Shown one piece after another: positions 10,654 to 61,626 of a DNA stretch of 64,000 bases. The stretch comes from an uncultured delta proteobacterium (GTDB lineage Bacteria; Desulfobacterota; Syntrophobacteria; BM002): assembly GCA_963712115.1 (NCBI GenBank), contig CAVQGX010000039.1, positions 88 through 64,087 on the forward strand, in the 5' to 3' direction. The notes below the pieces were generated by a model that was given only the letters and a program-made list of their open reading frames with translations, was not told the origin of the DNA and did no database searches. Within the stretch, counting starts at the first letter, position 1. Each line of letters starts with the position of its first letter. Made by a program: the position numbers and the translations under genes.

Positions 10654-10654
10654 A

Positions 10655-41737: not shown

Positions 41738-44700
41738 CTAATCTGAATAGACCAGGGCAACTTCACTGCCGTTTTGCATTGCGGAGAGAACCTCTTCTGC
41801 AAAGCTCGAACCTTGCATCACATTTGTTTTTACAGAAAAGGGCTCTGTAATCCCCTTCGATCCTCTGAGCACGGTGAACGGCTTTTCTACAAGCTCTCGT
41901 TCAGGCTGCGCCAGGCTGTGATAGATCCAGCCGGTGTTTCCGTTTCTTAGTTGAAGCTTGAGCCAATCTCCATTTCTGCCCACTACCTGAAGCCGTGTTC
42001 CCCTCTGAATCAGTCGGAGCAAGGGAGCGTGAATGCTGGGCCCTGATCTGATCTTGGCTACATTGGGTAGACTAACGTAAGTTTCAGCTAAGTTCTGCCT
42101 TGGGGAGCGCGCCTCTTCTGCTGAACTCGCCTTTTTAATCATATTCGGTTGTGCTGCTATGGGTCCTGAAATCACCTTCGATTTTTTCACAGCAGTAATC
42201 GGCTTTCTTACATGCTCTCGTTCAGGTTGCGCCAGGCTGTGATAGATCCAGCCGGTGCTTCCGTTTCTAAGCTCAAGCTTGAGCCAATCTCCATTTCTGC
42301 CCACTACCTGAAGCCGATTTCCCCTCTGAATGAGGTGGAGTATTGGGGTGTGAAAGCCCGGCCCTAATCGGATCTCCGCTATTTGGGGCAGACTTTCCCA
42401 GGTCTGGGCTTCACTCAGCTGCGATGGGATAAATTGGTTTGGCTTATTCACTACCCTTGGTTTTACCGCTACCAGTTCTGCTTTTTCAGCCGATTGTTTA
42501 GCCGTGCCCGAGAGCTTTGCTTGACCTTGCTCAGGTTCAGGTCTCCTCACCGCCTCTTCCACCTTGACCTCCGGTGCAGCCTTGCTGGACTTCCTGGGCA
42601 ATTCGCTGCTCGCTTTGCTGACGCTGGCGGGCACGACTATTTTGGCTCTTTGGCTTTGGGACTTTATAGTTGGGGGGCTGGGATTTGAAGACTTAAACCA
42701 CAGGAGACCTCCTATTAGCACAAGCCCCATTAGTACCGACAAAATAAGTAGATTTAATCCTTTGCCCTCCGTTGCCGAAGTCAGTCGCTTCTTACTGAGG
42801 ATGGTGCGTATCCTTCCTATTCCCTGGCTAAAGATGTCTTTCCAGCGGGAGAGTGGTGTTGCGGCCCCCTGGTCACTTTTTTGCTCATAGTAATAATCCG
42901 TGCGGTAACGATAGAAATCCGGGGCCACATCAGGTTTGACATTGTTGAGGATTACCCCCAGGACATTGCTATTCACATTTTCCAATTGCACCTTGGCTCG
43001 ATGGAGAATCCCCCGGCCAATGCGACCTACCTCGTAAACCAGGATAACCCCATCCACTTCAGGAGCCACCTCGAAGGCGTCGGCCACGGGCAGCACCGGT
43101 GGCGTGTCTATGATGATAACGTCGTAGTTTTCCCTCACCTCATGCAAGAACTCTTTAAACCTGGGTGAACGAAGGATTTCAGCGGGGTTGAGCAGACTTC
43201 GGCCCGCATTCATAATATGCAAATTATCCATCCCCGGAGTTTTGAGGATTTGATCAAATTCGAACTTGCCGAGCATCACATCGATGATGGTGTTGGTCAC
43301 GCCTTTCCAACTGCCATCTAACGTTCGGAATTCCGGCACACTGCCCATTTCCAGTTCATATGCATCCTCTCCGGGATGTTTCAAGTCGCTGATTCCCACA
43401 ATGTAATCTGTAAGCCCTGGTTCCCTTTCAAGGCCGAAAATATTATGGGTTGAGGGTCTGCGGAGATCAGCATCGATGAGAAGCACTTTTTCTCCCGCTT
43501 GGGCCAGACTCAGGCTAAGGTTGACCACATTGTAGGTTTTCCCCTCCTGCAGGGACGAACTGGTGACAAGAAAAACTTTTGCTTCTATTTCCTTCCAGAT
43601 AAATTGCAGATTGGTTCTCAAGGACCTGTATGCTTCAGAAACTGGAGAGCGCGGGGCAAAGTGAGTTACCAGCGGCTCACCTCTTGGTTTAACCCCGGTT
43701 TCATCTTTCTCACTAAAGGCAAATTCCTGAACAGATGGGATAACGCCGAGTACGGGGATACCCAGAATCTCCTCCACATCTTCGATGGTGCCCAAGGAGG
43801 TGTCCATGGTCTCTACAATCAAAGCAAGCACCAGGCCGACAACGAGGCCAATTATCCCGCCAGTGACGGTGTTGGTCAGAGTGTTGGGCATATTTATAGG
43901 ATTACTTGGCTCCAGAGCAGGTTTGATGATCTTAACCTCTTCTATTAGGCCCGATTCCTGGATCATCACTTCTTGATACTTGGATTTGAGCTGGGCAAGA
44001 AGATCCCCGTTTAGCTCCACATCCCGGCGCAGCCTGGCGAGGGTAAGAACACTGTCTGGGATTGCCATTGCTTGACCCCGCGCTGCTTCGAGCCGCTTTC
44101 CCAAGTCCTGCAAGCGGCCGTCCATTGTGGTCAGCATGGACCTCAGTTCTTTTTCCATTTCTGAAAGAACATTCGCCAGCTCCGCATCGACAGCATCCAC
44201 CTCGGGGTGCTCCTCTGTATAGTCGTTGAGCAGGATTTCGCGCCGCAAGCCCAGGTCTCTGAATTTGGTTGTGAGCTTAGCTAGTTGGGGTGAGGGATTC
44301 TCGACGTAGAATGCTTCTTGGCTGACACTCTGCTTCCCCACACTGAATTGTTGAAGAAGTCCTAGCTGTCTCTTGACTTCAAGCCTCTTTTGCTGTAGAT
44401 CGGCCACCTCATTCTCGAGGCTGATAAGACGATTAATGGCAGCTGTGGTCTGAGCGTCAATGGCCACCAGTTTGGTGTCTTTTTCATAATTGCGAAGATT
44501 TTGTTCAGCTTCCTGCAGGCGTCTTTCAACAACTTCCAACTGCCTCTCAATGAACTCCCTGGTTTCTCTGACCTTTTTGTTCCGTTCATTAACGTTATTC
44601 TGGCGGTAGACTTCGGCAACTGTGTTGGCGAGCAGCGTAGCCTCAGTTGCATTTGAAGAGTTAGCGGTGATGTTTATGATGTTGGTGTTACCCTCCTGCT

Positions 44701-45082
44701 CGGTTTCGATCTGCGATTTGAGTCCATTTACTACTTCGAGATATTTATGGATACTGCGGACCTGGGCTGAGGAGATATTTTCAGGGATGAGCCCCATCTG
44801 TCGTGCTGATTGTTCGATGACTGGAAAACTGGTAATAATCACCGCCTGGGTTGCCACGTTGTCCCAAGAAGTCCAGGAGACGGTGCCGAGGAGTAAGGTA
44901 GTGAGATCAGTGGCTTTTTCTACTTTGACGGCGGAGGTTGCCTCGTAGATAGGTTCGGGAGTGCGAATCACCGCAAAGAGATAGCTGAAGACCGTGAAAA
45001 TTATGGTCGACAGGATGACAACAGTTCTGCGTTTGCGGATGATCCGCCAGTAATCGCGTAGATTTATGTCATATTTTGCCAT
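41738..45082 (-). CDS. wzc: Wzc-type polysaccharide co-polymerase/BY-tyrosine kinase with an extra C-terminal TM segment and two SH3-like domains
   Basis: 1114 aa. It has a Wzz-like N-terminal domain with two TM helices and coiled coils. The kinase motifs are SLQEGKT, LLIDADLRRP and IIIDTPPV, and the Tyr cluster is YRYRTDYYY. It then has a TM helix (LNLLILSVLMGLVLIGGLLWF), a Pro/Ser/Lys-rich linker, and two repeats of ...GP..H.P.L.LIQRG.RLQVVGRNGDWLKL.LRNG.TGWIYHSLAQPE (bacterial SH3-like). Confidence 0.85.
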   Translation of the reverse strand: MAKYDINLRDYWRIIRKRRTVVILSTIIFTVFSYLFAVIRTPEPIYEATSAVKVEKATDLTTLLLGTVSWTSWDNVATQAVIITSFPVIEQSARQMGLIPENISSAQVRSIHKYLEVVNGLKSQIETEQEGNTNIINITANSSNATEATLLANTVAEVYRQNNVNERNKKVRETREFIERQLEVVERRLQEAEQNLRNYEKDTKLVAIDAQTTAAINRLISLENEVADLQQKRLEVKRQLGLLQQFSVGKQSVSQEAFYVENPSPQLAKLTTKFRDLGLRREILLNDYTEEHPEVDAVDAELANVLSEMEKELRSMLTTMDGRLQDLGKRLEAARGQAMAIPDSVLTLARLRRDVELNGDLLAQLKSKYQEVMIQESGLIEEVKIIKPALEPSNPINMPNTLTNTVTGGIIGLVVGLVLALIVETMDTSLGTIEDVEEILGIPVLGVIPSVQEFAFSEKDETGVKPRGEPLVTHFAPRSPVSEAYRSLRTNLQFIWKEIEAKVFLVTSSSLQEGKTYNVVNLSLSLAQAGEKVLLIDADLRRPSTHNIFGLEREPGLTDYIVGISDLKHPGEDAYELEMGSVPEFRTLDGSWKGVTNTIIDVMLGKFEFDQILKTPGMDNLHIMNAGRSLLNPAEILRSPRFKEFLHEVRENYDVIIIDTPPVLPVADAFEVAPEVDGVILVYEVGRIGRGILHRAKVQLENVNSNVLGVILNNVKPDVAPDFYRYRTDYYYEQKSDQGAATPLSRWKDIFSQGIGRIRTILSKKRLTSATEGKGLNLLILSVLMGLVLIGGLLWFKSSNPSPPTIKSQSQRAKIVVPASVSKASSELPRKSSKAAPEVKVEEAVRRPEPEQGQAKLSGTAKQSAEKAELVAVKPRVVNKPNQFIPSQLSEAQTWESLPQIAEIRLGPGFHTPILHLIQRGNRLQVVGRNGDWLKLELRNGSTGWIYHSLAQPEREHVRKPITAVKKSKVISGPIAAQPNMIKKASSAEEARSPRQNLAETYVSLPNVAKIRSGPSIHAPLLRLIQRGTRLQVVGRNGDWLKLQLRNGNTGWIYHSLAQPERELVEKPFTVLRGSKGITEPFSVKTNVMQGSSFAEEVLSAMQNGSEVALVYSD

Positions 45083-45460: not shown

Positions 45461-45640
45461 GCTGACAGCAGGCAGCTGGCAGAAGACGGAGGTCGGAGGT
45501 CAGAGGTCGGAAGTCAGAGGACAGATGTTCCCTAGGCACACGAAAGGCAAGAGACGCATGGCGTAGGGCATAAGGATAAGATAAGCTTTATTTGATTTTT
45601 TTTGCCTTGCGCCTTGTGCCCTGTGCCTTGCGCCTTATGC
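45461..45640. repeat. Low-complexity 'stutter' repeats and hairpin
   Basis: GCTGACAGCAGGCAGCTGGCAG and GGAGGTCGGAGGTCAGAGGTCGGAAGTCAGAGG are present. AAGGCAAGAGACGCATGGCGTAGGGCATAAGG faces CCTTGCGCCTTGTGCCCTGTGCCTTGCGCCTT. Confidence 0.7.
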
Positions 45641-45853: not shown

Positions 45854-46498
45854 CTAGAATATCAAGGAGAGGGTGAAGATGGCCAGGTTTCCCAGTGCAT
45901 GGATGGTGATGGGGACAATCAGGCTGCCGCCGAACTCATAGGCCAGAGCAAAGAGAAGCCCCCCCACCAAACGGGTGACGGGGATTCCATGACTAATGGG
46001 GTGGCAGAGTACGAAGATCAGGGTGCTGAGAATAAGGGCCACAATTACCCCCCATCGTCGCAAAAAACCATAGAGTATTCCCCGAAAGAAGACCTCTTCC
46101 GCTACGGGTCCTAAAATCCCGCCAACAATGAAAAAAAGAACAAGATCACCGGTCTGCGTGGGTAGGCGGGCTTTTATTAAGGTGAGAGGATTTATGGAGG
46201 CAGCGAACAATCCAACACAGGCAACGGAACCGATCGCTCCAAAACCGGCCGACCAGAGCAGCCCTTTTTTCAAACCAGAGACCATCTCGGATCGAGCCAA
46301 GCCTATGGAAGGTAATCCTTTCCCCCAGGTCACAACAATCAGGATAATCAGGAGTATTTGGAGGAGACGGGCGCCAGCCAGAATAAGCATGGGGAGGTAG
46401 CCGGACTTTGAAGTCACCACCCATGTACCCAGTTCTACGGCAATTACTGCAGAAAGGCAGAAGAACAGGGTTCTTAATTCGATTTTCTTTGCTTCCAT
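45854..46498 (-). CDS. CPBP-family intramembrane glutamic endopeptidase (CAAX/Abi)
   Basis: Motifs GPVAEEVFFRG (EExxxR), FVLCH (FxxxH) and IHALGN (HxxxN). The likely start is MEAKKIELR at 46498; the track ORF starts at 46531. Confidence 0.8.
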   Translation of the reverse strand: MEAKKIELRTLFFCLSAVIAVELGTWVVTSKSGYLPMLILAGARLLQILLIILIVVTWGKGLPSIGLARSEMVSGLKKGLLWSAGFGAIGSVACVGLFAASINPLTLIKARLPTQTGDLVLFFIVGGILGPVAEEVFFRGILYGFLRRWGVIVALILSTLIFVLCHPISHGIPVTRLVGGLLFALAYEFGGSLIVPITIHALGNLAIFTLSLIF

Positions 46499-47976
46499 CC
46501 TAGGGCCCGCAAGGCTTTGTAAGCATACCATTGGTTGTACCAGTGATCAGATGTTTTGATCCTTGTTAGAATTTCGCTGACACCCCTGCTATCTCCCCTC
46601 CGCCCGAGCCCATGAAAGGCCATTGAAACCACATTGGGATGGGGATCATCCAGAAAGGCCAAGAGATCTCTGTAGGTTTCAGGTCGGCGGCTTACACCCA
46701 GTCCCCTCACCAGCCAGTAGCGCTCTGCTATGTGTGGGCTTGCCAGCAGCCTTGAATAGGTCGGAAAGCTGCTTACTTCCAGCCCTTTTCGCTCTATGAT
46801 CCTCAAGGCGGCAACTCTCTCTTGCCAGGACTTTGATGCCAGAGCCCGGGGTACATCCTTAAAATCCATATCTGTCCATCTCGTGTGTTGGAATGGGATC
46901 AGGATGCTCAGGCCAACAATTAGACAAAGGATTGAAGCCATCAAAGAAGAGATCCTAACATCCAGAAAAAAGCAACAGAGGAGACGGATCAGAGCATGGA
47001 GGAGAAGATAGAGGGTTGGGGGCAATCCCATGACAAGAGAGTAGAAGGTAAAATGTCGGAAGAAACCGTGTCTGTCACTCTTAGCAGAGAATTCTTCCAA
47101 TGCAGTTGCCGGTTCGGAGAGAAAATCTGCAAATGTGGTCAGGAGAATTGTCCTGCCCTCATGGTTGAAGGCCAGCATACCACCATCTTGTACCACCTTA
47201 AGGTCAACTGCATCATCTGTTTCCACAGCAAGGTAGTCACGGTCGAGCAATTCCATCTCCACCCGCGCCAGCAGGGCACCCTTTTTAAGGTTTTGCAGAC
47301 TGCAAGTTTTGAGAAGCTTCTGGTCCAGAGACTTGAAGACCTCCGCAGGGTAGAGGGTATAGTCATAGTAAAAATCGTTAACCTTTATCCCAACTGGATT
47401 TGAAAGGAGGAAAATGTCTCTGAAGTCCACGAAAAAGTTTTTGTTAATTTGGGATGCCCACAAAAGTGCCAGGACCACAACCGGGATGGTGTGTAGCGCT
47501 CCGTGGACCCACCCCCTATTACCGGGACGTGGGGGTATCCATCTGAGGGTAGCGAGGAAAACCACAGGGGGTATGACAAAAAAATAACATGTGGCCCCAA
47601 AGGAAAAGCCCCGGTGATTCAGCTCCACCAGAGAACCAAGCCAGAACAGCAAAAAAACGATCAAAATATATCGGTTTCGGGAAAACACCCGATTCCATAG
47701 CCAGGCCGCTCCGATGGAGAGTAGGGTTAGACCTGCACCTACACTTAGAGTGAAAAAAAGACCGCCAAAGAAGGCGGGAGCGAATTCCTGGAGGCTGGGC
47801 ATGGTGCGTTGGTTCGGTATGGTGAGGTAGCCGGCAGCTTTTATGATCGATAGGTTGCGGTAGAGATCGAGGTTGGACAGGTAAACCTGGATGGCAGCTA
47901 TAACCTGGGCTACAAGGAGGCCCAGCAAAAGCGCTCTGGCCGTGTAGGGAAGTCTATTTTCTAAGTTTTGGCTCAT
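46474..47976 (-). CDS. Polytopic membrane protein with C-terminal HEAT-like repeats
   Basis: 500 aa. The N-terminal ~330 aa contain multiple TM helices. The C-terminal SWQERVAALRIIERKG...DPHPNVVSMAFHGLGRRGDSRGVSEILTRI...WYAYKALRALGW is a HEAT/PBS-lyase-type repeat pattern. Confidence 0.6.
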   Translation of the reverse strand: MSQNLENRLPYTARALLLGLLVAQVIAAIQVYLSNLDLYRNLSIIKAAGYLTIPNQRTMPSLQEFAPAFFGGLFFTLSVGAGLTLLSIGAAWLWNRVFSRNRYILIVFLLFWLGSLVELNHRGFSFGATCYFFVIPPVVFLATLRWIPPRPGNRGWVHGALHTIPVVVLALLWASQINKNFFVDFRDIFLLSNPVGIKVNDFYYDYTLYPAEVFKSLDQKLLKTCSLQNLKKGALLARVEMELLDRDYLAVETDDAVDLKVVQDGGMLAFNHEGRTILLTTFADFLSEPATALEEFSAKSDRHGFFRHFTFYSLVMGLPPTLYLLLHALIRLLCCFFLDVRISSLMASILCLIVGLSILIPFQHTRWTDMDFKDVPRALASKSWQERVAALRIIERKGLEVSSFPTYSRLLASPHIAERYWLVRGLGVSRRPETYRDLLAFLDDPHPNVVSMAFHGLGRRGDSRGVSEILTRIKTSDHWYNQWYAYKALRALGWKQRKSN

Positions 47977-47990
47977 TGGACAAAGAATAA

Positions 47991-48110
47991 GGTTTCAGTG
48001 TTCAGTGTTCAGGTTTCAGCTTTAGATTTATTTTTTATTTTTCTCTTTCCTGACACCTGACACCCGAAACCTGAAACCTATAGCCCTCACACCTGAAACC
48101 CTGAAATCTG
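47991..48110. repeat. Low-complexity 'stutter' hairpin
   Basis: GGTTTCAGTGTTCAGTGTTCAGGTTTCAGC faces CCTGACACCTGACACCCGAAACCTGAAACC, and further CCTGAAACC words follow. Confidence 0.7.
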
Positions 48111-48224
48111 GTTCTTGTCGCTTGGGATTTCATAAAATCCATCACTCCAGGAGACTCCCGCATCAAGGAAACACTTTTAAAGCCTCCTCTGGGGCGGCAA
48201 AGTCCTAAGGACCCGAAGTCTTAA

Positions 48225-49100
48225 TTACCACTTGCTGATCTTTTTTACCAGTGCGAGGACGCTCTTTTCCGGTCTGAAGCTGAGTTCTTGACATGGGACC
48301 TGAGCTGCTAGCTGGCTGAAGAACTCCAGAACAAATTGCATCCCTTGGAAGTCCCACAGGGGGGGAAAGGAACAGGTGAGGAGGTGCGATACCGGATCGA
48401 GCCCTTTCATATCTTTGACCGAATTCTCCTGTCCATGGCTCAGGAAGAAAATTCTTTCTAACTTGGCTTCCCGAGGCGAACCGAATGCGGCCTCGCCATG
48501 CCAGGGCGTGCCGTAAATCCTGAACTCACGACCCTGTTTTCGCACAATAACTCTGTCGTCGCTGAGTATATCAACACCATTTTCTTGAGCCCACATCCTC
48601 GCCAGCGTGCTTTTACCAGCCCCGGATTCCCCCAAAAAAAGGATTCCTCTATCCTCAATTACGATGCCGCAGGCGTGAAGGATGACTCCCCTTTCCTGTG
48701 CCAGGTAATGGATGAGCAAAAGTTCCATAGTGGGACCAAAGAAGGGGTCGATGAAGCGGATACAGTTGTCGGCAAAGTAAAGGTCAGCGTGTTTGAGATG
48801 GTGCGGCAAAAAGAGGGTTCTCTGGAGGTCAGCCATTTCCGGGAAAAGTCTGATCAATGACGTACCGTTTTCACGGTACAGAGTCCAGATCGGGGGGGAC
48901 TCGAAAACTTTTTCTCCAACCACCATGTCAGGGATCCCGAGGTGCAGTTGAAGGCTGATGTCGGTTTTTCCTCGGGCGACAAAGGGAAGATAGGCCGGCG
49001 CTATTTCCCCAAAGACTTTTCCTGCAATGGAAATAGCCACGTCTCCAATTCTGATGGCCACGTTTTTTTGCGACATAAGCATTAAGGTTAAGTGAACCAC
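48225..49100 (-). CDS. HPr-kinase-like P-loop protein (RiPP cassette A)
   Basis: 291 aa. ILHACGIVIEDRGILFLGESGAGKSTLA resembles the HprK/P C-terminal domain P-loop (GxSGxGKS). It is a paralogue of 57928..58854. Confidence 0.7.
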   Translation of the reverse strand: MVHLTLMLMSQKNVAIRIGDVAISIAGKVFGEIAPAYLPFVARGKTDISLQLHLGIPDMVVGEKVFESPPIWTLYRENGTSLIRLFPEMADLQRTLFLPHHLKHADLYFADNCIRFIDPFFGPTMELLLIHYLAQERGVILHACGIVIEDRGILFLGESGAGKSTLARMWAQENGVDILSDDRVIVRKQGREFRIYGTPWHGEAAFGSPREAKLERIFFLSHGQENSVKDMKGLDPVSHLLTCSFPPLWDFQGMQFVLEFFSQLAAQVPCQELSFRPEKSVLALVKKISKW

Positions 49101-49172
49101 GAAGAGTACGAAGATGTTAATATCATTATTTAAATTTGCTTTATGCGATTCTTTGATAAAGGGAAAAAATCT

Positions 49173-49682
49173 TTAATTGCCCCCCTTTACAAAAGGGGGA
49201 CTTTTATGATCCAGTTCCCGTAAAAACCTCTGAAAAACACTCCTCTTCAACCGAGCAAGCCACAGGTAAAGCATGCTCCACAGTCTGACTCTCCAGCGGT
49301 AAGGGTCGATGGTGCGATGACCTCGCTCCAGCCAAACAACCTTGCCCAGGACCTGTTGCGCTTCCACCGGGCAATCGCAGGTCGTGGAAGCGTCCCCCCG
49401 CAGGATAAAGGTGAGTCCAGAACCGTTTCTTTCCTCTATATTCACTATGCGATGGGCAATCAAACCGCTCTGAAGGCGAAAGAGAATAATGTCTTTCTTT
49501 TTGAGCTTGGCTGGCGCTGCAGGCTCAACCGTGATCACGTCACCATGGCGAATGGTGGGATGCATGCTTGTTCCAGGGGCTCGGAAACGCACTCCTAAGC
49601 CGAGGCTCAACACCTCACCACTCAATTGACCAAAACTCGGCGATGAGATCCGAGTTTTCAATGCAAGGTCCGCCTTATTCAC
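49173..49682 (-). CDS. SipW/archaeal-type S26 signal-peptidase-like protein without a membrane anchor (cassette A)
   Basis: GTG start. GTSMHPTIRHGDV (Ser box), IAHRIV (His box) and RGDAS..CD (the GDN-type box). No N-terminal hydrophobic helix is evident. Confidence 0.7.
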   Translation of the reverse strand: MNKADLALKTRISSPSFGQLSGEVLSLGLGVRFRAPGTSMHPTIRHGDVITVEPAAPAKLKKKDIILFRLQSGLIAHRIVNIEERNGSGLTFILRGDASTTCDCPVEAQQVLGKVVWLERGHRTIDPYRWRVRLWSMLYLWLARLKRSVFQRFLRELDHKSPPFVKGGN

Positions 49683-49703
49683 GGTGTCAATAGCCTCGAA
49701 CCA

Positions 49704-49868
49704 TCAAGAGCCTGGGCCGGAGCAGGGTGAGGCCGGCAGACCGCATTCAGCGCCGTCAGGGCCGAGACTTCCAGAGCTTTTGCAAAAGGCCAGGACGGCA
49801 CACTTGGCGTCTAGACTCACCCGCTTAACTTCAGGCTTCTTATATTCTTTCTTCTTACTTTTCTCCAA
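49704..49868 (-). CDS. Candidate RiPP precursor peptide A (54 aa, TTG start), not in the ORF track
   Basis: My translation of the minus strand is (M/L)EKSKKKEYKKPEVKRVSLDAKCAVLAFCKSSGSLGPDGAECGLPASPCSGPGS-stop. An in-frame TAA lies 4 codons upstream. AAGGA sits 6 nt before the TTG. The ORF ends 21 bp before the S26-like gene. The leader EYKKPEVKRVSL parallels KYEKPLIIPFNSL of precursor B, and both cores have 4 Cys. Confidence 0.55.
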   Translation of the reverse strand: MEKSKKKEYKKPEVKRVSLDAKCAVLAFCKSSGSLGPDGAECGLPASPCSGPGS

Positions 49869-50151
49869 GGTTTTTCCTTACAAAAGTTAGAACCAAGTTT
49901 CGCTTGCGATTTGAAGGCTCCTACCTCTTACAATAAATGACAGCGCTACGCTGTCATTTATTGTAAGAGGTAGGGGTCAGGGGTCGGGAGTCAGGGATCA
50001 GTATAAAAATAGTTCCTAAGTATTAAATAATTTTATAATTTTTATACAAAGTTTTACCTCTGCAGGTTGTGCTGTTTGGGGCTAGGATTTGCTTGACACA
50101 CTTGAATGAAGTATTTACTATGGATTAAAGTAAACACTTGGAGGAAACAAA

Positions 50152-50415
50152 ATGGGAATAGTGACGGCCAAACAACTGAAACAAAGAACAGGTGAAATCA
50201 TTAAGCGACTAAAATCAGGTGAAAGCTTCACCCTGACACACCGAGGTAAACCCGTTGCAGTTATTAACCCTTCTTTATCAGAAGAGGAAAGAATCTCTCC
50301 GGGCTTGAGATCATTCGAGGAAGCGTGGGAGGATATTGAAAGACAGTTGGAGAAAACTAAACCTCCATTCAAGAGCTGGAAGGAGGCAACCAGGTGGGCT
50401 CGAAATCGGGTGTAG
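50152..50415 (+). CDS. Phd/YefM-type antitoxin
   Basis: MGIVTAKQLKQRTGEIIKRLKSGESFTLTHRGKPVAVINP is the typical Phd/YefM N-terminal fold. It overlaps the downstream PIN gene. Confidence 0.7.
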   Translation: MGIVTAKQLKQRTGEIIKRLKSGESFTLTHRGKPVAVINPSLSEEERISPGLRSFEEAWEDIERQLEKTKPPFKSWKEATRWARNRV

Positions 50416-50846
50416 TTTTAATTGATACTAATATTTTTGTCATAGACCTGCGATACAGCAGGGATATTCACTATAACGAGAATCTTGCATTTCTCAATGT
50501 CGTAGCTGAAAAGGGAGTAGGTTTTACGACTATTGTTAATCTGTTGGAGCTTTGCGGAATTCTTTCGTTCAATCTCAACGAAAAGCAATTGCTCGAACTG
50601 TGGTTCTATTTTCAGGATAAATACAAGGTGACTGTACTCCCCACCCCTGACCTCACGAGTAATTTTCCCACCATAGGAATTCAAGAGCTATTCGATGTTT
50701 TACAAAATCGGGCTTCACTTGGTGATGCCTTGATGATCACTGTTGCGGCAAAGTATTTACCTTTCATTACCACACTGGTCACTTGGGATGATGAACACTT
50801 CAAAGGTAAATTCCCTGGTAATGTCATGACTCCAGAGGAATACTAG
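50394..50846 (+). CDS. vapC: PIN-domain toxin (VapC-like)
   Basis: VVLIDTNIFV carries the first acidic residue, and the size and the overlap with the antitoxin gene fit the family. Confidence 0.65.
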   Translation: MGSKSGVVLIDTNIFVIDLRYSRDIHYNENLAFLNVVAEKGVGFTTIVNLLELCGILSFNLNEKQLLELWFYFQDKYKVTVLPTPDLTSNFPTIGIQELFDVLQNRASLGDALMITVAAKYLPFITTLVTWDDEHFKGKFPGNVMTPEEY

Positions 50847-51218
50847 ACCCCAGGTCCCACCGGTCTGTGATCTGCTTCGCCGGGATCTGGCGCACAGCTC
50901 TTGTTTGATCTACAGCTAATTGGTGTCCATCTGGAAACTACCCAGTGTTATTCTCAGCCCTTCGGCAAGACCTGCCGACGAACTCAGGTCGAGTCGCTCA
51001 GGGCAGGCTCCGAGAAGAGACGCTCTGTCATCCTGAAGCCTTCGGCAAGCTCAGAGCCTGCCCTGAGCCTGTCGAAGGGATAGACTCCGCGAAGGATCTT
51101 GAGATTCTTCGTCGTCCCGCATAAGCAGGACTCCTCAGAATGACAATCCAAAAGAGGTGTCTCCCGATGGAGACAAACTAGTTTGAGGAACGGCCTTCTT
51201 TATGCTAGGTTGTTTCGC

Positions 51219-51680
51219 ATGAAGGTTCTGTCAAGGAAAAAGTTGGATCAGAAAGAGAAAGATCTCTTGATTTCGCAGCTCAGGGAGTTGCTTTCGGGAA
51301 AAGAACCTGTTTTGTTTGCCTATCTTTATGGGTCTTTCTTAGGGGAGGGATTTTTCCAGGATATCGACGTAGCAGTGTACTTTGATTCGCCTGCCTTCAA
51401 GGATAGTAGCGACATGTTGAATTACTCCCTCGCCTTGAGTGCAGAGTGCGATATGGCCACCACTGGTGTGACCTTCGATCTCAGGCCTCTCAATTTGGCT
51501 CCCCTTCCATTCAGGTTCGACGTCGTGACCCAAGGGCGAGTCCTTTACACTAGGGATGAAGAGCTTCGGGTTGATTTTGAGGCGCGCACTCGAAGCCTCT
51601 ACTTCGACTTTTTACCCCATCTGAGGTTTTACTTTAGGAACATCGTCTTAGGAGAATCGGATGAACGACTTGGAGAATAG
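51219..51680 (+). CDS. mntA: MntA-type minimal nucleotidyltransferase antitoxin
   Basis: LFAYLYGSFLGEGFFQDIDVAVYF (GSx10-11DxD motif). The likely ATG is at 51219. Confidence 0.7.
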   Translation: MKVLSRKKLDQKEKDLLISQLRELLSGKEPVLFAYLYGSFLGEGFFQDIDVAVYFDSPAFKDSSDMLNYSLALSAECDMATTGVTFDLRPLNLAPLPFRFDVVTQGRVLYTRDEELRVDFEARTRSLYFDFLPHLRFYFRNIVLGESDERLGE

Positions 51681-52095
51681 TGTTCTGAACCGCCTATTCA
51701 CAGAGATGGATGAATCCCTCCGTAAGCTTATAAGTCTTTCGAAGCTTTCAGAAGATGAATTCCTAAGCCACTATGAAAAGATCGATACCTCCAAATATAA
51801 TTTCATTGTAGCTATTGAAGCCATAATAGACATCTGCAATCGAATCATTTTAAAGCGAAAACTTGGCTTTCCACAGGACTATTCCGATGTCATCAAGCTT
51901 ATGAGTCAGCAAGGGGTGTTGGAAGGGGATCTGGTCGGGCGGTTGTTGGAGATGGTCAAGTTCAGAAACATGCTGGTCCATCTTTACTGGAAAATAGAAA
52001 ATGACAGGCTATACAAGTATTTAAAGGAAAACCTCGGCGATTTTGAAGCATTCAAAGAGGCTATCAGGAAGTACCTCAAGAAAAGTTCATCATAA
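51661..52095 (+). CDS. hepT: HepT (DUF86) RNase toxin
   Basis: FRNMLVHLYW matches the Rx4HxY catalytic motif. The gene overlaps mntA by 20 nt. Confidence 0.75.
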   Translation: MNDLENSVLNRLFTEMDESLRKLISLSKLSEDEFLSHYEKIDTSKYNFIVAIEAIIDICNRIILKRKLGFPQDYSDVIKLMSQQGVLEGDLVGRLLEMVKFRNMLVHLYWKIENDRLYKYLKENLGDFEAFKEAIRKYLKKSSS

Positions 52096-52176
52096 CCTCC
52101 CACGCATATCTCACATCTCACATTCTTGTCTTCTACTAAGATCGCCCGCTGGAGCTGGAAGTGAGGTCAGAGGAAG

Positions 52177-53313
52177 TCAAGGGAGGCGGGTTTTAAAGAG
52201 GAGTTCTACAGTATTCGCAATCGCCATGGGGGGAACGGTCAGGCCGAGGGCATGTGCCCGGAGATGGGCTACGCGGCAGAGAAAATCCACGGGCTCTTCC
52301 GGATCTTTGTTCTCTAACTCGCCATTGGCCGGGCACATGCCACACATTGCCTTGATCGCACAGGCAAAACACTTGGTCTGCCTGGTGATCTTTTTCTGCC
52401 GGATCTCCGAGATAAAGTCTTCCCAGCCATCTCGGAAACTGCCTTGTCGCAGGTCGTAGGTGTCATTGGCAGACATCCCGCACAGACTGAGGTTTCCTGA
52501 AGGATCAATGGCAAAGGAGCCCACCCCACCACCGCACTGATAGAGATCATCGGAATGGTTTGGGTCTAAACGAGGTGCTGCATAGCGCTCACAGAACCGG
52601 TCCCACTCTGCCAACCGTTCAGAGTCCTGCACATCGAGCTCCACCACCTCTTCCGGTGTGAGCCTGAGGGCTAGAGGAACCTGAGAGCCGTCAAGCCGCG
52701 GGTTGATCATGGCATCGAACCTGAATTCCAAGCCCAGGTCCTCCTCCACAAACCGCTTCATCTCCCAAATCTCATGCCTGTTTAAGGTCATGGTAACGGT
52801 CTTGAGCTTCACGGGCATCCCACGCTCCATGAGCAACCTAATCCCTCGCAGGCAGCAGTCGAAAGAACCTGGTTTGCCGGTTATCTTTTCGTAGGTCTTC
52901 TTGGTGTGCCCGTACAGAATAATTTCAATGTAATGAGGCGGGTACTCGGCTAGAGAATCTGCAATCTTTTCATTGATCAGGATTGCATTGGTAAACAGGG
53001 TGATGAGTAACCCTTTCTGCTTTGCGTACTTGTAGATAACAATGAAGTCCGGTCTGGCGAAGATCTCCCCGCCCGTGTACAGGAGCCAGAAGCAGCCCAA
53101 CTCCACAATCTCATCCAAAATACGACAGTGCTCGTCGTAGGAAAGTTCGCGGTCAAGGGCCTGTTGATTCGCTATGGGCAGATTGTTGTAACAGTGGGCA
53201 CATGCCAATGGACAGCGACGGGTTACCTCAATGGTCCCCCGTAAGGGGATGCGCTTGCCTGAAACCCGGTGGGAGACGCCAAGGGCAAAGTCCTCATAGC
53301 TAACCGTTTCCAT
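52177..53313 (-). CDS. Radical SAM/SPASM peptide maturase (cassette A)
   Basis: The cluster motif is RRCPLACAHC (CxxxCxxC). The C-terminal SPASM cysteines are CGGGVGSFAIDPSGNLSLCG and CFACAIKAMCGMCPA. Confidence 0.85.
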   Translation of the reverse strand: METVSYEDFALGVSHRVSGKRIPLRGTIEVTRRCPLACAHCYNNLPIANQQALDRELSYDEHCRILDEIVELGCFWLLYTGGEIFARPDFIVIYKYAKQKGLLITLFTNAILINEKIADSLAEYPPHYIEIILYGHTKKTYEKITGKPGSFDCCLRGIRLLMERGMPVKLKTVTMTLNRHEIWEMKRFVEEDLGLEFRFDAMINPRLDGSQVPLALRLTPEEVVELDVQDSERLAEWDRFCERYAAPRLDPNHSDDLYQCGGGVGSFAIDPSGNLSLCGMSANDTYDLRQGSFRDGWEDFISEIRQKKITRQTKCFACAIKAMCGMCPANGELENKDPEEPVDFLCRVAHLRAHALGLTVPPMAIANTVELLFKTRLP

Positions 53314-53549
53314 GGTTTATCTCTAACCTGAGAGTGTTCAATAATTCAGTCTTGCATGCCTTGAGGCTTCGACCTAACTGGATCCCCGCCTGCGCGGGGA
53401 TGACTGGTGATGGCATGGCATCGTCATTCCCGCGAAAGCGGGAATCCAGATCATATGCAGACATTCATCTAGTCATTATCAGGGGAAACTATTCATAATA
53501 TAATTTTGTAACTAGTTGATTTGTTAACTTAAAGAAATATTTAACAGTT

Positions 53550-53849
53550 TCAAGTTGCTCCAGACGGCTTGATCAGTCCGGAACCTTCGAGAGATCGGAG
53601 GAAATCCAAAAGGTCTTTTTCCGCCTCCACGGCCCCAACATCGTACTCGTTTTTCACAGCTTCCATTAGCTGCCGAACGGTTTTCTGCCCGTCGATGAGT
53701 TGCCAGATCATGGCGCCCACTTCACTAAGGGTAAAAACTCCCTCCAGATCACCCACGTGACCCTTGATGGGCACAATAATTATCTCACCAGCAACATCTC
53801 TGGTAACGAGTTCCTTCTCTTTGGCAAAACACGTGTCTAAAGTGTTCAT
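53550..53849 (-). CDS. PqqD-family peptide chaperone (RRE), cassette A
   Basis: 99 aa. ...EIIIVPI...VFTLSEVGAMIWQLIDGQKTVRQLMEAVKNEYDV..AEKDLLDFLRSLEGSGLI is the canonical PqqD pattern. Confidence 0.85.
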   Translation of the reverse strand: MNTLDTCFAKEKELVTRDVAGEIIIVPIKGHVGDLEGVFTLSEVGAMIWQLIDGQKTVRQLMEAVKNEYDVGAVEAEKDLLDFLRSLEGSGLIKPSGAT

Positions 53850-53891
53850 GTGAATTCTCCAGGGAGCGATTTTAAATACATCTTATTTTTT

Positions 53892-54012
53892 CCCCTCCCC
53901 TGGCGGGAGGGGATAAAGGGGGGTCTGAACCTGGTACATAGGTTACCCATGTCCGTGGTTGCACGGGGAGGGGGTCACCCCCACCCATACCCTCCCCCGT
54001 CAAGGGGGAGGA
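53892..54012. repeat. GC-rich palindromic REP cluster (CCCCTCCCCTGGCGGGAGGGG / CCCTCCCCCGTCAAGGGGGAGG units)
   Basis: It contains hairpin units plus GGTCTGAACCTGGTACATAGGTTACCCATGTCCGTGGTTGCACGGGGAGGGGG. An inverted copy lies at 54611..54762. Confidence 0.8.
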
Positions 54013-54610
54013 GATTTTAGTATTTCCGGATGGGCACTAACTTTCCACAAGCTTTGTTTCCTCATAGACTCCTGCAATTCTTGGGCCGAGACGTTTCACT
54101 GTCATTTGCCTTCGGCGTCATTGGGTCATTACGCTGCGCTGTCATTGGTTGTAATAGGTAGGAGCCTTCAAGTCGCAAGCGAAGCTTGCTCCTACACGAC
54201 ATTGTAAAGCTAAGATTTCTTGCTGCCAGTTGCTAGCTGTCAGCTGCCTGCTGAATACAACCGGCAAAACGGACTTAACTGGCTTAAAAGTCTTAGGGCA
54301 GCGGGCAGGGGACCACTAGGCACTACACAGAGGGAGTAAGTGTTAAGTAGTTGAGAATAACTCAATTTTGATTGTCTTTCCTTACTGGCTCCTGGCTCCT
54401 GACTCCTGGCTCCTTGTCCCAAGGGTTGTAATTGCGGATATTATCGTTTATAGATCTCTAAATTTTTATTATTTGCAATCATGGGAGCACAAACTGAGAG
54501 TGCCAATGCAGCCTCTTTCGGCCCCGATGTCCGACCTTCTGTTTTTATCCTGTCTTTTCCACTTCGAGCGCAAGCACCATCCCGAGAGGCTTTCCGATAA
54601 CCTTATAGAT

Positions 54611-54762
54611 CCCTCCCCCTTGACGGGGGAGGGTTAGGGTGGGGGTGAAAAATAAATGTATTTCCAGTTATTTTATATCCCCCCTCCCCGTGCAACCACG
54701 GACATGGGTAACCTATGTACCAGGTTCAGACCCCCCTTTATCCCCTCCCGCTAGGGGAGGGG
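54611..54762. repeat. Inverted copy of the GC-rich REP cluster
   Basis: It contains the exact reverse complement of the 53925-53975 segment (CCCCCCTCCCCGTGCAACCACGGACATGGGTAACCTATGTACCAGGTTCAGACC), with a ~30-bp AT-rich insertion. Confidence 0.8.
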
Positions 54763-54911
54763 AAGGGGGTTGTCGGACAGCCTCTCCCGTTTGTTTTCGT
54801 AAGAAAGAGATGCAAAACCAACGGCACGAAGTTTGCTTGAAGTTTATAGGATTGGAGTATTGGAGTATTGGAGTATTGGAGCAGCAAATTGTTTGAAGGG
54901 GAGGTTATCCC

Positions 54912-55199
54912 GTGATGCAAACTGAAAATCCCATAGCCAATCCTCTGATCGTACTTCGGGAGGAGTTTGATGACTGGGCTATACTTTTTGATCCTGATAC
55001 CGGTGATGCCTTCGGCCTCAATCCCATAGGCGTGCACATCTGGAAGCGATTGGATGGTAATCATTCAGTCAAAGACATCTTGCAAGATCTGCAAGAGGGT
55101 TATGAAGATGTGCCGGACGAGGCAGAGGGTGATCTCCAAGAGTTCATTGAGGATTTGGTCCAGCGTGGACTAGCAGGATACGAGATTCAGAAGGATTGA
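54912..55199 (+). CDS. PqqD-family peptide chaperone (RRE), cassette B
   Basis: 95 aa. ...WAILFDPDTGDAFGLNPIGVHIWKRLDGNHSVKDILQDLQEGYEDVPDEAEGDLQEFIEDLVQRGL. GGGGAGG lies upstream of the GTG-ATG start. Confidence 0.85.
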   Translation: MMQTENPIANPLIVLREEFDDWAILFDPDTGDAFGLNPIGVHIWKRLDGNHSVKDILQDLQEGYEDVPDEAEGDLQEFIEDLVQRGLAGYEIQKD

Positions 55200-55206
55200 T
55201 CCGATC

Positions 55207-56310
55207 ATGCAATTAATGAAAACCCCCAGATCTGTGGATCTGGCTATAACCGCCCGATGCAATCTGCGGTGTACTTACTGCAGCCATTTCACCGGTGCGG
55301 GCGACGTGGGTCAGGATCTCCCCAAGGAAGAATGGCTCCAATTTTTCGAGGAATTGAATCGCTGTGCAGTCATGAATGTGACAATCGGGGGAGGAGAGCC
55401 TTTTTGTCGGAAAGATTTACGCGAGCTCATTGAGGGGATTGTCGGCAACCGGATGCGGTTCAATATTCTAAGCAATGGAACATTGATTAATGATGAGATG
55501 GCAGCTTTTCTGGCTTCGACCGGACGCTGTGACGGGGTACAGGTCTCCCTTGATGGCTCGGTTCCGATGACTCATGATGCTTGCAGGGGAGAGGGGAATT
55601 TCATAAGAGCCATGGAGGGCATCAAGTCCCTCCAGAAATATGGCGTTCCTGTTCCCGTCCGGGTGACAATTCACAAATATAACGTAAGGGATCTTGAAAA
55701 TGTTGCCAAACTTCTATTGGAGGACATTGGTCTTCCAAGCTTATCCACCAACGCTGCCTCATATATGGGTCTCTGCCGGCAAAATACTGAACAGATCCAA
55801 CTCACTGCTGAAGAACGCTCCCTGGCCATGGAAACCCTTCTAGAACTCGACAAAAAATACAATGGCCGCATCAGCGCTTCCGCCGGTCCTTTGGCTGAGG
55901 CAGGAAATTGGCTCGAGATGGAAAAGGCTTGTCAGGAAGAGGAAGAAGGTATCCCGGGACGGGGCTATCTTACCAGTTGCAATGGACCCATGAGTCAAAT
56001 CGCCGTGCGTGCTGATGGGGTCATGGTGCCATGCATTCAAATGAGCCATATAGAGTTGGGTCGGATCAACAGAGATGATCTTAAGGAGATCTGGCAGGAA
56101 AATCGTGAACTGAAAAGACTGAGGGAGAGGCATAAAATTGCATTGAGCGAATTCGAGTTTTGTCAGGGGTGTGATTACATCAACTACTGTACCGGTAACT
56201 GTCCTGCTCTGGCCTATACGATTCTAGATAAAGAGAATCATCCGAGCCCGGACGCCTGTCTGAAGCGATTCCTGGAGGCAGGGGGAAGGCTACCGGAGGG
56301 GATTTTTTAA
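55207..56310 (+). CDS. Radical SAM/SPASM peptide maturase 1 (cassette B)
   Basis: ARCNLRCTYC (CxxxCxxC). The SPASM region is CNGPMSQIAVRADGVMVPC and CQGCDYINYCTGNCPA. Confidence 0.85.
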   Translation: MQLMKTPRSVDLAITARCNLRCTYCSHFTGAGDVGQDLPKEEWLQFFEELNRCAVMNVTIGGGEPFCRKDLRELIEGIVGNRMRFNILSNGTLINDEMAAFLASTGRCDGVQVSLDGSVPMTHDACRGEGNFIRAMEGIKSLQKYGVPVPVRVTIHKYNVRDLENVAKLLLEDIGLPSLSTNAASYMGLCRQNTEQIQLTAEERSLAMETLLELDKKYNGRISASAGPLAEAGNWLEMEKACQEEEEGIPGRGYLTSCNGPMSQIAVRADGVMVPCIQMSHIELGRINRDDLKEIWQENRELKRLRERHKIALSEFEFCQGCDYINYCTGNCPALAYTILDKENHPSPDACLKRFLEAGGRLPEGIF

Positions 56311-56336
56311 CCGCAGAGAGCGCAGAGAGCGCAGAG

Positions 56337-57494: not shown

Positions 57495-57583
57495 GTCCCC
57501 AAGGCCTCAAGCGTGATAAGAGGATAGAGAGCCTTGGAGAATAAATCAAAGATTGAAGGTTTAAACCCTAGGAGGAAGCTATT

Positions 57584-57772
57584 ATGTCTCCTAAATATGA
57601 GAAACCATTAATTATCCCGTTCAACTCCCTTAAAGATGAAACTGGGCTCGGGCTTTGCAAGCCGCTTGGTTCAACAGATGCCGGGCAGTGTAGAACTGGT
57701 AGTACGGCAACACCGGGTGCATGCAAAAATGGTAGTACTGCAGGCGGTTGCAATAGCGGTAGTTCTCCATAG
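57584..57772 (+). CDS. Candidate RiPP precursor peptide B (62 aa)
   Basis: MSPKYEKPLIIPFNSLKDETGLGLCKPLGSTDAGQCRTGSTATPGACKNGSTAGGCNSGSSP. There are four C-x2-3-G-S-[TS] repeats, with Cys at 25, 36, 47 and 56. A strong AGGAGG lies 8 nt upstream of the ATG. The gene sits between the maturases and the kinase-like gene. Confidence 0.7.
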   Translation: MSPKYEKPLIIPFNSLKDETGLGLCKPLGSTDAGQCRTGSTATPGACKNGSTAGGCNSGSSP

Positions 57773-57927
57773 GCAGTTGCGCTAATGGAAGATTCGTGTC
57801 TGGTTCTTGGGCGGCATAGGGCTCGTGGTAAAGTTCCCTGATACTTTGGGAATGAAAGAGTTTTTTTGATACATGGAAGCACTTTGAATTAACTATCATC
57901 TGGTTTTAGAGTATTAAAAGTTGTCAA

Positions 57928-58854: not shown

Positions 58855-58871
58855 ATAACCAAAGAGAAGAA

Positions 58872-59513: not shown

Positions 59514-59580
59514 AGGTATAAGTCAAGTGGTGTGAGTGGTTGACATTGGTAATCTAAAATTTTCCGAGGAACTTAGATAG

Positions 59581-60120: not shown

Positions 60121-60153
60121 TGTAAAAATGTAGATCAAGTATGTTATTTACCA

Positions 60154-61458: not shown

Positions 61459-61485
61459 AAAGTAATAATTTGTAAGAGACTCAGT

Positions 61486-61626
61486 CTCACCCCCACCCCG
61501 CCCGCCTCGCCTGAGCGAGAGCGATGGCGGGCAGGCCTAACCCTCCCCCGTCGAGGGGGAGGGAACGTTTTGTGCACGCTATGATTCCCCCTCCCCTGGC
61601 GGGAGGGGGTTAGGGGGAGGGGGAAG
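61486..61626. repeat. GC-rich palindromic REP cluster
   Basis: Contains CCCCGCCCGCCTCGCCTGAGCGAGAGCGATGGCGGGCAGGCC, CCCTCCCCCGTCGAGGGGGAGGG and CCCCCTCCCCTGGCGGGAGGGGG. Confidence 0.8.

Follow-up and report, generated by a model that had tools for sequence, protein, structure and literature searches.

A physically fragmented radical SAM cassette beside a SynChlorMet cassette probably belongs to a distinct, widespread family of peptide-maturation cassettes

The stretch of DNA analyzed here, referred to as the window, comprises 64,000 nucleotides from an uncultured delta proteobacterium (assembly GCA_963712115.1, contig CAVQGX010000039.1, positions 88 to 64,087 of the forward strand). It carries two neighboring peptide-maturation cassettes, A and B, of which cassette A is the subject of this report. 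Cassette A, although physically broken up, is probably an intact member of a separate family of such cassettes that is widespread and apparently uncharacterized, and the two genes at its downstream end, for a HEAT-repeat membrane protein and a CPBP protease, probably constitute a separate module. An earlier note on positions 45854-53849 had described cassette A as a second, rearranged copy of the cassette B pathway, with the two membrane-protein genes as a tail for immunity or export. The genes concerned are as follows (ABC, ATP-binding cassette).

53550-53849, minus strand: peptide chaperone of the PqqD type, the recognition element for cassette A; 99 amino acids; Pfam PqqD 61.5 bits.
52177-53313, minus strand: predicted radical SAM/SPASM maturase A, 378 amino acids; Pfam Radical_SAM 77.8 bits.
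49704-49868, minus strand: precursor peptide A, 54 amino acids with four cysteines; TTG start, with an AAGGA ribosome-binding site just before it.
49173-49682, minus strand: Sec11/SipW-type S26-like serine peptidase, a predicted leader peptidase; no membrane anchor.
48225-49100, minus strand: ScmC-family HPr-kinase-like P-loop protein, a predicted peptide kinase.
46474-47976, minus strand: membrane protein with a C-terminal HEAT-repeat domain, 500 amino acids; HEAT_2 36.1 bits.
45854-46531, minus strand: CPBP (Rce1-like) glutamic intramembrane protease, overlapping the stop of the HEAT gene; Rce1-like 62.9 bits.
54912-63513, plus strand: cassette B, with ScmD, ScmE, ScmF, ScmA, ScmC, an S26-like peptidase, a CxxC protein, NTP_transf_5 and an ABC exporter.

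The distribution of the family was assessed by scanning species-representative genomes with radical SAM A, which gave 56 loci from six or more phyla: Desulfobacterota, Binatia, Acidobacteriota (Pyrinomonadaceae, Bryobacteraceae, Thermoanaerobaculia and Holophagales), Myxococcota/Polyangia, Candidatus Entotheonella and Planctomycetes. The radical SAM A orthologues are 51-66% identical in most of these loci. Sixty-two loci with radical SAM A homologues (L001-L062) were fetched, and the window proteins were searched against their six-frame open reading frames (ORFs); gene-order counts are drawn from the 39 loci with at least 2.5 kb of sequence downstream of the radical SAM gene. An A-type precursor lies within 400 nt of the radical SAM stop in 29 of the 39, and the radical SAM, precursor and kinase-like genes occur together in 30. 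All five genes (PqqD, radical SAM, precursor, kinase-like and peptidase) are co-directional within 4 kb in 23 of the 39, and in the A-type family PqqD lies directly upstream of the radical SAM gene. In L005, for example, the PqqD gene (9680-9997) is followed by the radical SAM gene (10001-11278), a 60-residue gene (11425-11607), a 295-residue gene (11620-12507) and an S24-like gene (12530-13045). The uninterrupted version that the earlier note had proposed to look for in other genomes therefore exists, and five contiguous genes are the norm.

No NCBIfam model covers the A-type maturase or precursor, and the Pfam ScmC family covers the kinase-like component only. A limited literature search found no description of the A-type family. 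GeoRSP, mycofactocin, PQQ, lasso-peptide and HPr-rel-A identities were considered for the A proteins and rejected, all scores being far below cut-off.

The distinction between cassettes A and B was assessed first against family models. Cassette B exceeds the NCBIfam cut-offs for ScmD (134.7 bits, cut-off 100), ScmE (645.2 bits, cut-off 400), ScmF (619.6 bits, cut-off 400) and ScmC (312.2 bits, cut-off 125); its ScmA precursor scores 28.1 bits, just under the cut-off of 35, and its NTP_transf_5 protein 157 bits. By these scores, cassette B is a true SynChlorMet (SCM) cassette. Against the same models, PqqD A reaches 30.7 bits (ScmD), radical SAM A 63.2 and 57.3 bits (ScmE and ScmF), and the HprK-like protein 18 bits (ScmC), while precursor A has no NCBIfam or Pfam match at E 0.01 or better, the ScmA model included. 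By the same yardstick, cassette A is not SCM.

Direct comparison of the counterparts gave 33% identity over 55 residues for PqqD, 23-25% for radical SAM A and its B counterparts, 30% over 90 residues for the S26-like peptidases and 25% over 60 residues, around the P-loop only, for the P-loop proteins; the two precursors gave no significant alignment. Orthologues of the A proteins in other phyla are 55-67% identical, and homologues of radical SAM A number in the thousands, with 63-88% identity for the best 120. Since A orthologues are far closer than the B counterparts, A and B appear to be old, separate families and not duplicates. On these comparisons they share a domain architecture and are related at the superfamily level only. 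The pairwise identities that the earlier note had suggested measuring thus show that the A and B proteins are not each other's closest homologues, and the description of cassette A as a second, rearranged copy is not supported. Other parts of that description stand: the core domain set of cassette A mirrors that of cassette B at the domain level, the two cassettes are divergently arranged around a spacer of about 1 kb (1,062 nt), and cassette A is a peptide-maturation cassette, resembling those for peptides that are synthesized ribosomally and modified post-translationally (RiPPs), with its own precursor.

The precursor is the most revealing component. The 46 distinct sequences collected from the loci follow the pattern Y-x-[KR]-P-x-h-x-x-h-x-L-[RKD]-x-x-x-A-V-L-[GA]-x-C-K-x(3-5)-G-P-x(3-7)-C-x(3-6)-C-x(2-3)-G-S-stop. 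The C-terminal residue is serine or threonine in all 46, and 40 end in Gly-Ser; 37 have three cysteines and seven, including the window precursor, have four. An independent, exhaustive search of 1.84 billion cluster representatives added 61 precursors of the A kind, among which 56 end in Ser/Thr (the exceptions look truncated), 43 end in Gly-Ser and 34 have three cysteines. Among close relatives, the leader, the cysteines and the C-terminal PC[SA]G[PE]GS are conserved, and the loops between the cysteines are variable.

The HEAT and CPBP proteins behave differently from this core. Each has about seven membrane helices predicted from hydrophobic segments. The CPBP protein matches the Rce1-like family (PF02517) at 62.9 bits (cut-off 22.4) and retains the EExxxR, FxxxH and HxxxN motifs (AEEVFFR, FVLCH and HALGN), and it falls below the cut-off of all named NCBIfam subfamilies (MrtJ, 44 versus 75 bits; pepcterm_CAAX, 22.6 versus 81). 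In the model of the HEAT protein (predicted local distance difference test, pLDDT, 79.5), the C-terminal HEAT-like repeats alone match solved structures; the membrane domain has no match among solved structures, so that no function can be inferred for the protein. A homologue on a 75-kb contig (P0242) is 92% identical. Distant HEAT homologues were also tested for a location in polysaccharide loci like that of the window, and they sit elsewhere.

No HEAT or CPBP homologue was found in the flanks of any of the 62 radical SAM A loci (L001-L062). Forty-five loci retrieved from metagenomes with the HEAT protein as query were sorted by synteny and DNA alignment. The pair is intact in every relative with losses in cassette A, and the two genes are adjacent and intact in L069, L070, L077, L078, L064 and L065, all of which are without cassette A. 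In L083, L098 and L114, which have no peptide cassette in the vicinity, an overlapping HEAT-CPBP pair (50-59% identity) likewise sits among genes of housekeeping function (NAD kinase, RtcB, PilZ and response regulators). The HEAT and CPBP genes are therefore best treated as an independent two-gene module that lies by chance between cassette A and the exopolysaccharide genes. The proposal that they form a cassette tail for immunity or export is not borne out, given their absence from all 62 loci, their persistence after loss of cassette A and their occurrence alone elsewhere, and a dedicated immunity to peptide A conferred by this pair is unlikely.

PqqD A is 94% identical to its orthologue in L001 and L002 and 93% in L003, with a ratio of nonsynonymous to synonymous rates of about 0.22-0.25. 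The CX3CX2C motif of radical SAM A (Cys34, Cys38 and Cys41) and its seven C-terminal cysteines (260, 278, 315, 318, 324, 327 and 346) are 100% conserved in 116 homologues. The C-terminal cysteines are spaced as GX4C and CX2CX5CX2C, one residue off the usual CX3C. The best NCBIfam match of the protein scores 108.6 bits (cut-off 500), and its matches to solved structures are distant (PqqE, E 2e-11; SkfB, E 1e-7). In P0095, a protein of 521 residues, a homologue of radical SAM A (66% identical) is joined to a Peptidase_S24 domain, which provides an independent link between the peptidase and the maturase.

The kinase-like protein belongs to a family in which Pfam ScmC (PF27840) was present in 120 of 120 homologues among the matches listed. 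The motif LHACG...GESGAGKST...LSDDR is invariant (His142, Gly157-Glu-Ser-Gly-Ala-Gly-Lys-Ser-Thr165 and Ser180-Asp-Asp-Arg183), and in a comparison of 29 sequences Gly157, Ser159, Gly162, Lys163, Ser164, Thr165, Asp181 and Asp182 are invariant, corresponding to a Walker A motif and a metal-binding DD motif. PsmK likewise requires the corresponding DD pair (PMC6993621). As sequence searches gave only P-loop-level matches, a structure model was needed. Residues 140-220 of the model are confident and the C-terminal half has a pLDDT of 75-87, for a whole-model mean of 53. HPr kinase/phosphorylase accounts for each of the top 24 structural matches (probability 1.0, E 2e-5 to 1e-3). The protein is thus predicted from the model to contain the catalytic-domain fold of HPr kinase and to act as a peptide kinase.

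The peptidase scores 23.7 bits against Peptidase_S24 and 53.6 bits (cut-off 51.85) against TIGR02228, the NCBIfam model of archaeal-type signal peptidase I. Its TSMHP, IAHRI and RGDAS segments align with GSMEP, IVHRV and KGDNN of human SEC11A, which hold the catalytic serine, histidine and aspartate. No hydrophobic segment, and hence no N-terminal membrane anchor, was found in either the A or the B S26-like peptidase, which fits a cytoplasmic leader peptidase and makes a secretory signal peptidase unlikely. The last codons of the window gene are formed by a GC-rich palindrome, CCCCCTTTACAAAAGGGGG, at 49181-49199; the palindrome also appears in L007 and L009 at sites unrelated to this one, and the 3' end of the gene may therefore have been remodelled by repeat insertion.

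Together these components suggest a pathway. PqqD would bind the YxKP leader of the precursor and present the precursor to the radical SAM enzyme; PqqD-type recognition elements bind the same kind of motif (YxKP) in lasso-peptide leaders. The radical SAM enzyme would cross-link the conserved cysteines, probably as thioethers. The kinase-like protein would phosphorylate the nearly invariant C-terminal serine. Such a reaction is known experimentally from lasso peptides, in which the C-terminal serine receives a phosphate on its side chain from the HPr-kinase-family enzymes PsmK and PadeK, and hexose is subsequently attached to that phosphate by the nucleotidyltransferase-like PsmN (PMC6993621). 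The peptidase would remove the leader after the conserved AVL(G/A), a site that obeys the small-residue rule of signal peptidases at -1 and -3. As cassette A is without an exporter or nucleotidyltransferase of its own, export and any addition of sugar to the phosphate would borrow the ABC exporter and NTP_transf_5 protein (60154-61458) of cassette B. The fixed cysteine scaffold, the Ser/Thr end and the HPr-kinase-like protein together predict a cross-linked, C-terminally phosphorylated peptide.

The gene-by-gene map of positions 45854-53849 in the earlier note agrees with the ORF map, in which every gene is in place and intact, and its domain assignments were upheld by Pfam and NCBIfam scores, the PIN assignment weakly. 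Homologue lengths indicate likely true starts at 49076 for the HprK-like gene (283 residues) and at 46498 for the CPBP gene (214 residues). The ORF map and family searches of 45854-53849 revealed no second maturase, nucleotidyltransferase, CxxC protein or ABC exporter; the single maturase, and the lack of a nucleotidyltransferase, CxxCxxCC protein and ABC exporter that had been noted for cassette A, are confirmed within these limits. No Rfam RNA element was found in the region. The remaining features of the region interrupt or separate the genes, and include the toxin-antitoxin modules already reported to split cassette A (REP, repetitive extragenic palindromic element; MITE, miniature inverted-repeat transposable element).

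51183-52095, plus strand: probable toxin-antitoxin pair of type VII, MntA-HepT, situated between radical SAM A and the precursor (MntA 51183-51680, HepT 51661-52095).
50152-50846, plus strand: probable second toxin-antitoxin module, a Phd antitoxin (50152-50415) and an overlapping PIN-like ORF (50394-50846).
49920-50057, no strand assigned: palindrome and AT-rich segment upstream of precursor A, a candidate promoter region for the downstream block.
47977-48224, no strand assigned: 248-nt gap between the HprK-like and HEAT genes, with inverted heptamer-repeat arrays.
53850-54911, no strand assigned: spacer separating PqqD A from the divergently oriented ScmD, with REP/MITE-like copies in inverted orientation.

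Cassette A is split at two points. The gap between the PqqD and radical SAM genes is 236 nt in the window (53314-53549) versus 3-6 nt in the relatives L001, L007 and L008. The insertion contains a palindromic REP-like element at about 53378-53452 (RNA fold -73 kcal/mol, z-score -5.3), and a 29-nt piece of it recurs elsewhere in L064. The 2.3 kb that separate the radical SAM gene from the precursor are taken up by toxin-antitoxin genes. HepT scores 110.8 bits (cut-off 60), MntA 58.1 bits, just under its cut-off of 60, and Phd 27.2 bits (cut-off 20.8). The PIN-like ORF, at 16.6 bits (E 0.013), is below its cut-off of 23.6; the match spans the domain, and the DTN motif and the overlap with Phd fit the assignment. 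A HepT-MntA-Phd insertion also follows radical SAM A in L009 (83% identical), and MntA-HepT is retained in L064 as well. The PIN-like ORF is absent from L009, where Phd abuts MntA (L009 2083-2358 versus window 50394-50846); the Phd/PIN pair may be a later addition in the window, or the L009 arrangement may be a loss.

Giant secreted-protein genes (2,000-6,000 residues) occupy the toxin-antitoxin site, between radical SAM A and the precursor, in L001-L003, L008, L009 and L108-L110. Such genes in relatives encode up to 6,078 residues, with NosD/beta-helix, DUF2341, Laminin_G_3 and Peptidase_C25 domains (L108 3-8987, L110 1954-8943, L112 1-2730, L079 1-1326 and L001 7259-16063), and those in five assemblies share a C-terminal poly-Gly run followed by CFINTV(T/A)G. 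A Peptidase_C25 gene also lies just downstream of the cassette in L005, from another lineage.

Upstream of precursor A, a perfect 26-nt palindrome lies within 49920-49974, and the AT-rich segment 49995-50057 follows radical SAM A in L007, L008 and L009 at 86-95% identity. Promoter and terminator scans gave 13 matches versus 8.4 expected and 19 versus 11.1 expected, respectively, which is weak and near background. Within the 1,062-nt spacer (53850-54911), positions 53890-54011 and 54612-54764 form an inverted repeat that is 95-99% complementary. This element, of 120-150 nt, is present as two inverted copies flanking about 600 nt; further copies lie elsewhere in L001, L009, L063 and L079, and by virtue of these other positions it behaves like a REP or MITE. 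Copies of the repeat element at 47977-48224 are likewise found elsewhere in L001. The intergenic DNA is filled with short arrays in which units of 7-8 nt are repeated in tandem (45480-45525, 47990-48110, 49972-50001, 54222-54253, 54385-54414 and 54851-54881); some are inverted and could form long hairpins.

The ratio of nonsynonymous to synonymous substitution rates (dN/dS) relative to relatives is 0.18-0.25 for PqqD, 0.17-0.22 for radical SAM, 0.19-0.37 for the precursor, 0.24-0.41 for the peptidase and 0.14-0.20 for the kinase-like protein, compared to 0.04-0.12 for ScmD and ScmE. Cassette A is under purifying selection, weaker than that on cassette B. The genes downstream of the toxin-antitoxin modules, for which degradation had been raised as a possible objection, are not degraded; they are full length, with dN/dS of 0.14-0.37 (up to 0.41 for the peptidase).

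The state of the locus varies among relatives. The order precursor-peptidase-kinase-HEAT-CPBP-Wzc is retained in L068, L079, L096, L063, L067 and L076. A deletion of about 6 kb in L069 and L070 joins the spacer (window 54426) to the last 143 nt of the kinase-like gene (window 48361), and in L077 and L078 the 5' end of PqqD (window 53775) is fused to window position 48330, at the 3' end of the HprK-like gene. Only MntA-HepT and a stub of the kinase gene remain in L064, and the kinase-like gene is frameshifted in L074 and L075. L112 and L113 (GCA_037384945.1) carry a contiguous radical SAM-precursor-peptidase-kinase-HEAT-CPBP-Wzc-export-Wzc array, in which the radical SAM protein is only 49% identical to radical SAM A. 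This sediment population offers a natural series of intact, split and deleted cassettes that could be used to study their role.

Cassette A itself looks mosaic. The window kinase-like protein and the four-cysteine "LDAKC" precursor group with the L004/L014/L018 subclade (60-62% identity), and the window PqqD groups with the other subclade (44-49% versus 34-39%). Relative to L001-L003, dS is 0.13-0.39 for the A genes at 52177-53849 and 0.6-1.0 for ScmD/ScmE (54912-56310); the lower values for the A genes hint at recent recombination or transfer of the A segment.

Several observations weigh against the proposed account of cassette A. The Pfam SPASM model gives no match to radical SAM A at E 0.01 or better. 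For the kinase-like protein, the sequence search against solved structures reached E 0.025, with P-loop-level matches only, Hpr_kinase_C scores 24 bits, which is below cut-off, and the N-terminal half of the structure model is unreliable. The type of cross-link, the phosphorylation and the cleavage site are inferred by analogy. The PqqD and the kinase/precursor fall into different subclades, so the two halves may not have evolved together, and only weak sigma-70-like promoter matches lie upstream of precursor A. Finally, cassette A is often deleted or pseudogenized in close relatives and its dN/dS is 2-4 times that of ScmD/ScmE, which suggests that it may be dispensable.

These points bear on the possibility that cassette A is in decay, a remnant that mobile elements have split, that is no longer expressed as a pathway and whose genes are intact only because the disruption is recent. 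Such a history would accommodate the REP insertion between the PqqD and radical SAM genes, the roughly 2 kb of toxin-antitoxin genes before the precursor, the lack of an exporter and a nucleotidyltransferase, the deletion in L069/L070, the fusion in L077/L078, the frameshift in L074/L075 and the weaker selection on A (dN/dS 0.14-0.37, up to 0.41 for the peptidase) than on B (0.04-0.12). We nevertheless consider it unlikely: all five ORFs are full length with intact catalytic motifs, dN/dS is well under 1 for every gene, the precursor included, and the split is old in the lineage, since relatives with giant genes or toxin-antitoxin modules at the same site still keep both halves.

It is quite improbable that PqqD and radical SAM A instead serve as a third maturase for ScmA, leaving the precursor-peptidase-kinase block an orphan that has lost its own radical SAM gene. 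Across other lineages, 29 of 39 loci have a radical SAM A orthologue directly before an A-type precursor and lack an SCM cassette in the vicinity; the single deletion from PqqD to the HprK-like gene in L077 and L078 implies a contiguous, window-like ancestor; and in L108-L110 the precursor block directly follows the giant gene that comes after radical SAM A in L001-L003. What commends the idea is the head-to-head ScmD/PqqD A arrangement, conserved in L001-L003, L007 and L008 with no A-type precursor directly after the radical SAM gene, together with the different radical SAM (49% identical) that L112 and L113 carry directly before precursor-peptidase-kinase-HEAT-CPBP and the different subclades of the window PqqD and kinase-like protein.

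The reading of cassette A as a duplicated, rearranged paralogue of B with HEAT and CPBP as immunity or export genes draws on the common domain inventory, the divergent arrangement, the YxKP leader and L(G/A)-x-CK junction in both precursors and the membership of both kinase-like proteins in the Pfam ScmC family (the A homologues and the ScmC-type genes of relatives), yet it is very hard to sustain when A-B identities are 23-33%, the precursors do not align significantly, the A proteins score below every SCM cut-off, A-type orthologues (55-67%) occur in other phyla without any SCM cassette, and HEAT and CPBP are absent from 62 of 62 radical SAM A loci, outlive the deletion of cassette A and occur among housekeeping genes.

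An intact, split member of a separate family thus remains the likely explanation. It corrects the tempting view that look-alike neighboring cassettes reflect duplication, and it brings to light a peptide-maturation family, conserved across phyla, for which there is no named NCBIfam model.

The genomic context of the A-type cassettes provides some indication of their role. Upstream of 45.1 kb, the window is an exopolysaccharide locus with two Wzc-like tyrosine autokinases, a Wza-like exporter, GT4 glycosyltransferases and an O-antigen-ligase-like protein. The autokinase genes are at 41738-45082 (with C-terminal SH3-like repeats) and 35694-38159. The locus also contains a B12-binding radical SAM enzyme (27837-29336), and an AsnB-type amidotransferase (23390-25336) scores 637 bits against the XrtA/PEP-CTERM model (cut-off 817). 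Homologues of polysaccharide genes flank 15 of the 62 radical SAM A loci, and a Wzc-like gene 8 of the 62, both as raw counts; the 15 include Binatia, Entotheonella, Acidobacteriota and Desulfobacterota. This association of A-type cassettes with polysaccharide export is suggestive. The repeated siting beside polysaccharide export genes hints at a role other than antibiotic production. NTP_transf_5 genes adjoin many A-type cassettes (L004, L005, L013-L015, L018, L020-L022 and L024), and ABC exporters that match the cassette B exporter at 635-918 bits adjoin those in L014, L017, L018, L026, L034 and L062. A more speculative proposal, which we hold to be doubtful, is that A-type cassettes make an undescribed RiPP class with a radical-SAM-cross-linked three-cysteine core and a phosphorylated C-terminal serine, glycosylated on the phosphate in cassettes with an NTP_transf_5 gene, and that their function is tied to Wzc/Wza-dependent exopolysaccharide export or biofilm matrix assembly, not to antibiosis. 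It would be favored by the recurrence of A-type cassettes, in at least four lineages, beside genes for chain-length determinants and export.

Among known systems, CPBP/Abi proteases, which include proteins of bacteriocin immunity and Mrt-type sorting, share the Rce1-like fold and the three catalytic motifs with the window CPBP protein, which differs in scoring below the named subfamilies and in being paired with a HEAT protein in loci without a peptide cassette. The sactipeptide and ranthipeptide maturases (AlbA, SkfB, PapB and relatives) resemble cassette A, whose radical SAM enzyme has two putative auxiliary-cluster cysteine motifs, in acting with a recognition element on a cysteine-containing precursor, but are remote from radical SAM A (AlbA 60.8 bits, StsB 75 bits, SkfB E 1e-7, PqqE E 2e-11), and the recognition element of cassette A is a separate protein. 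The HPr-rel-A system (TIGR04352-TIGR04355), which is associated with exopolysaccharide loci, likewise combines a PqqD-like protein with an HprK-like P-loop protein; the scores of the A protein against its models are low (HprK_rel_B 38.8 versus 200 bits, HprK_rel_A 21.9 versus 200), and to our knowledge that system has no radical SAM enzyme and no cysteine-containing precursor.

The clusters of the lasso peptides paeninodin and pseudomycoidin appear to be analogous in their HPr-kinase-family protein, PqqD-type chaperone and Ser-ending precursor (PMC6993621). NTP_transf_5-type genes are frequent neighbors of both lasso-peptide clusters and the A family. Cassette A differs in lacking a lasso cyclase and a transglutaminase-like protease, with a radical SAM/SPASM enzyme as the core modifier, and in the window it is without its own nucleotidyltransferase.

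The SCM system (NCBIfam TIGR04248-TIGR04252: ScmD, ScmC, ScmE, ScmF and ScmA) has been defined by comparative genomics only. It differs from cassette A in several respects: the A proteins score 18-63 bits against SCM cut-offs of 100-400; cassette A has one maturase, not two; the A precursor has three or four cysteines and a Ser/Thr end, mostly Gly-Ser, in contrast to the four or five CxxG[ST] repeats and variable ends of ScmA; and the majority of A-family members have no SCM cassette with them. The ScmA precursors at hand (window 57584-57772, L007, L018, L064 and L069) vary in their CxxG[ST] repeats (four or five cysteines) and in their C-termini. The two systems have in common a PqqD chaperone, a radical SAM/SPASM enzyme, an ScmC-family P-loop protein and a small precursor that contains cysteine and begins with a leader of the YxKP type. 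A Sec11-like peptidase is also shared in this lineage, and the two cassettes lie side by side here and in L001-L003, L007 and L018.

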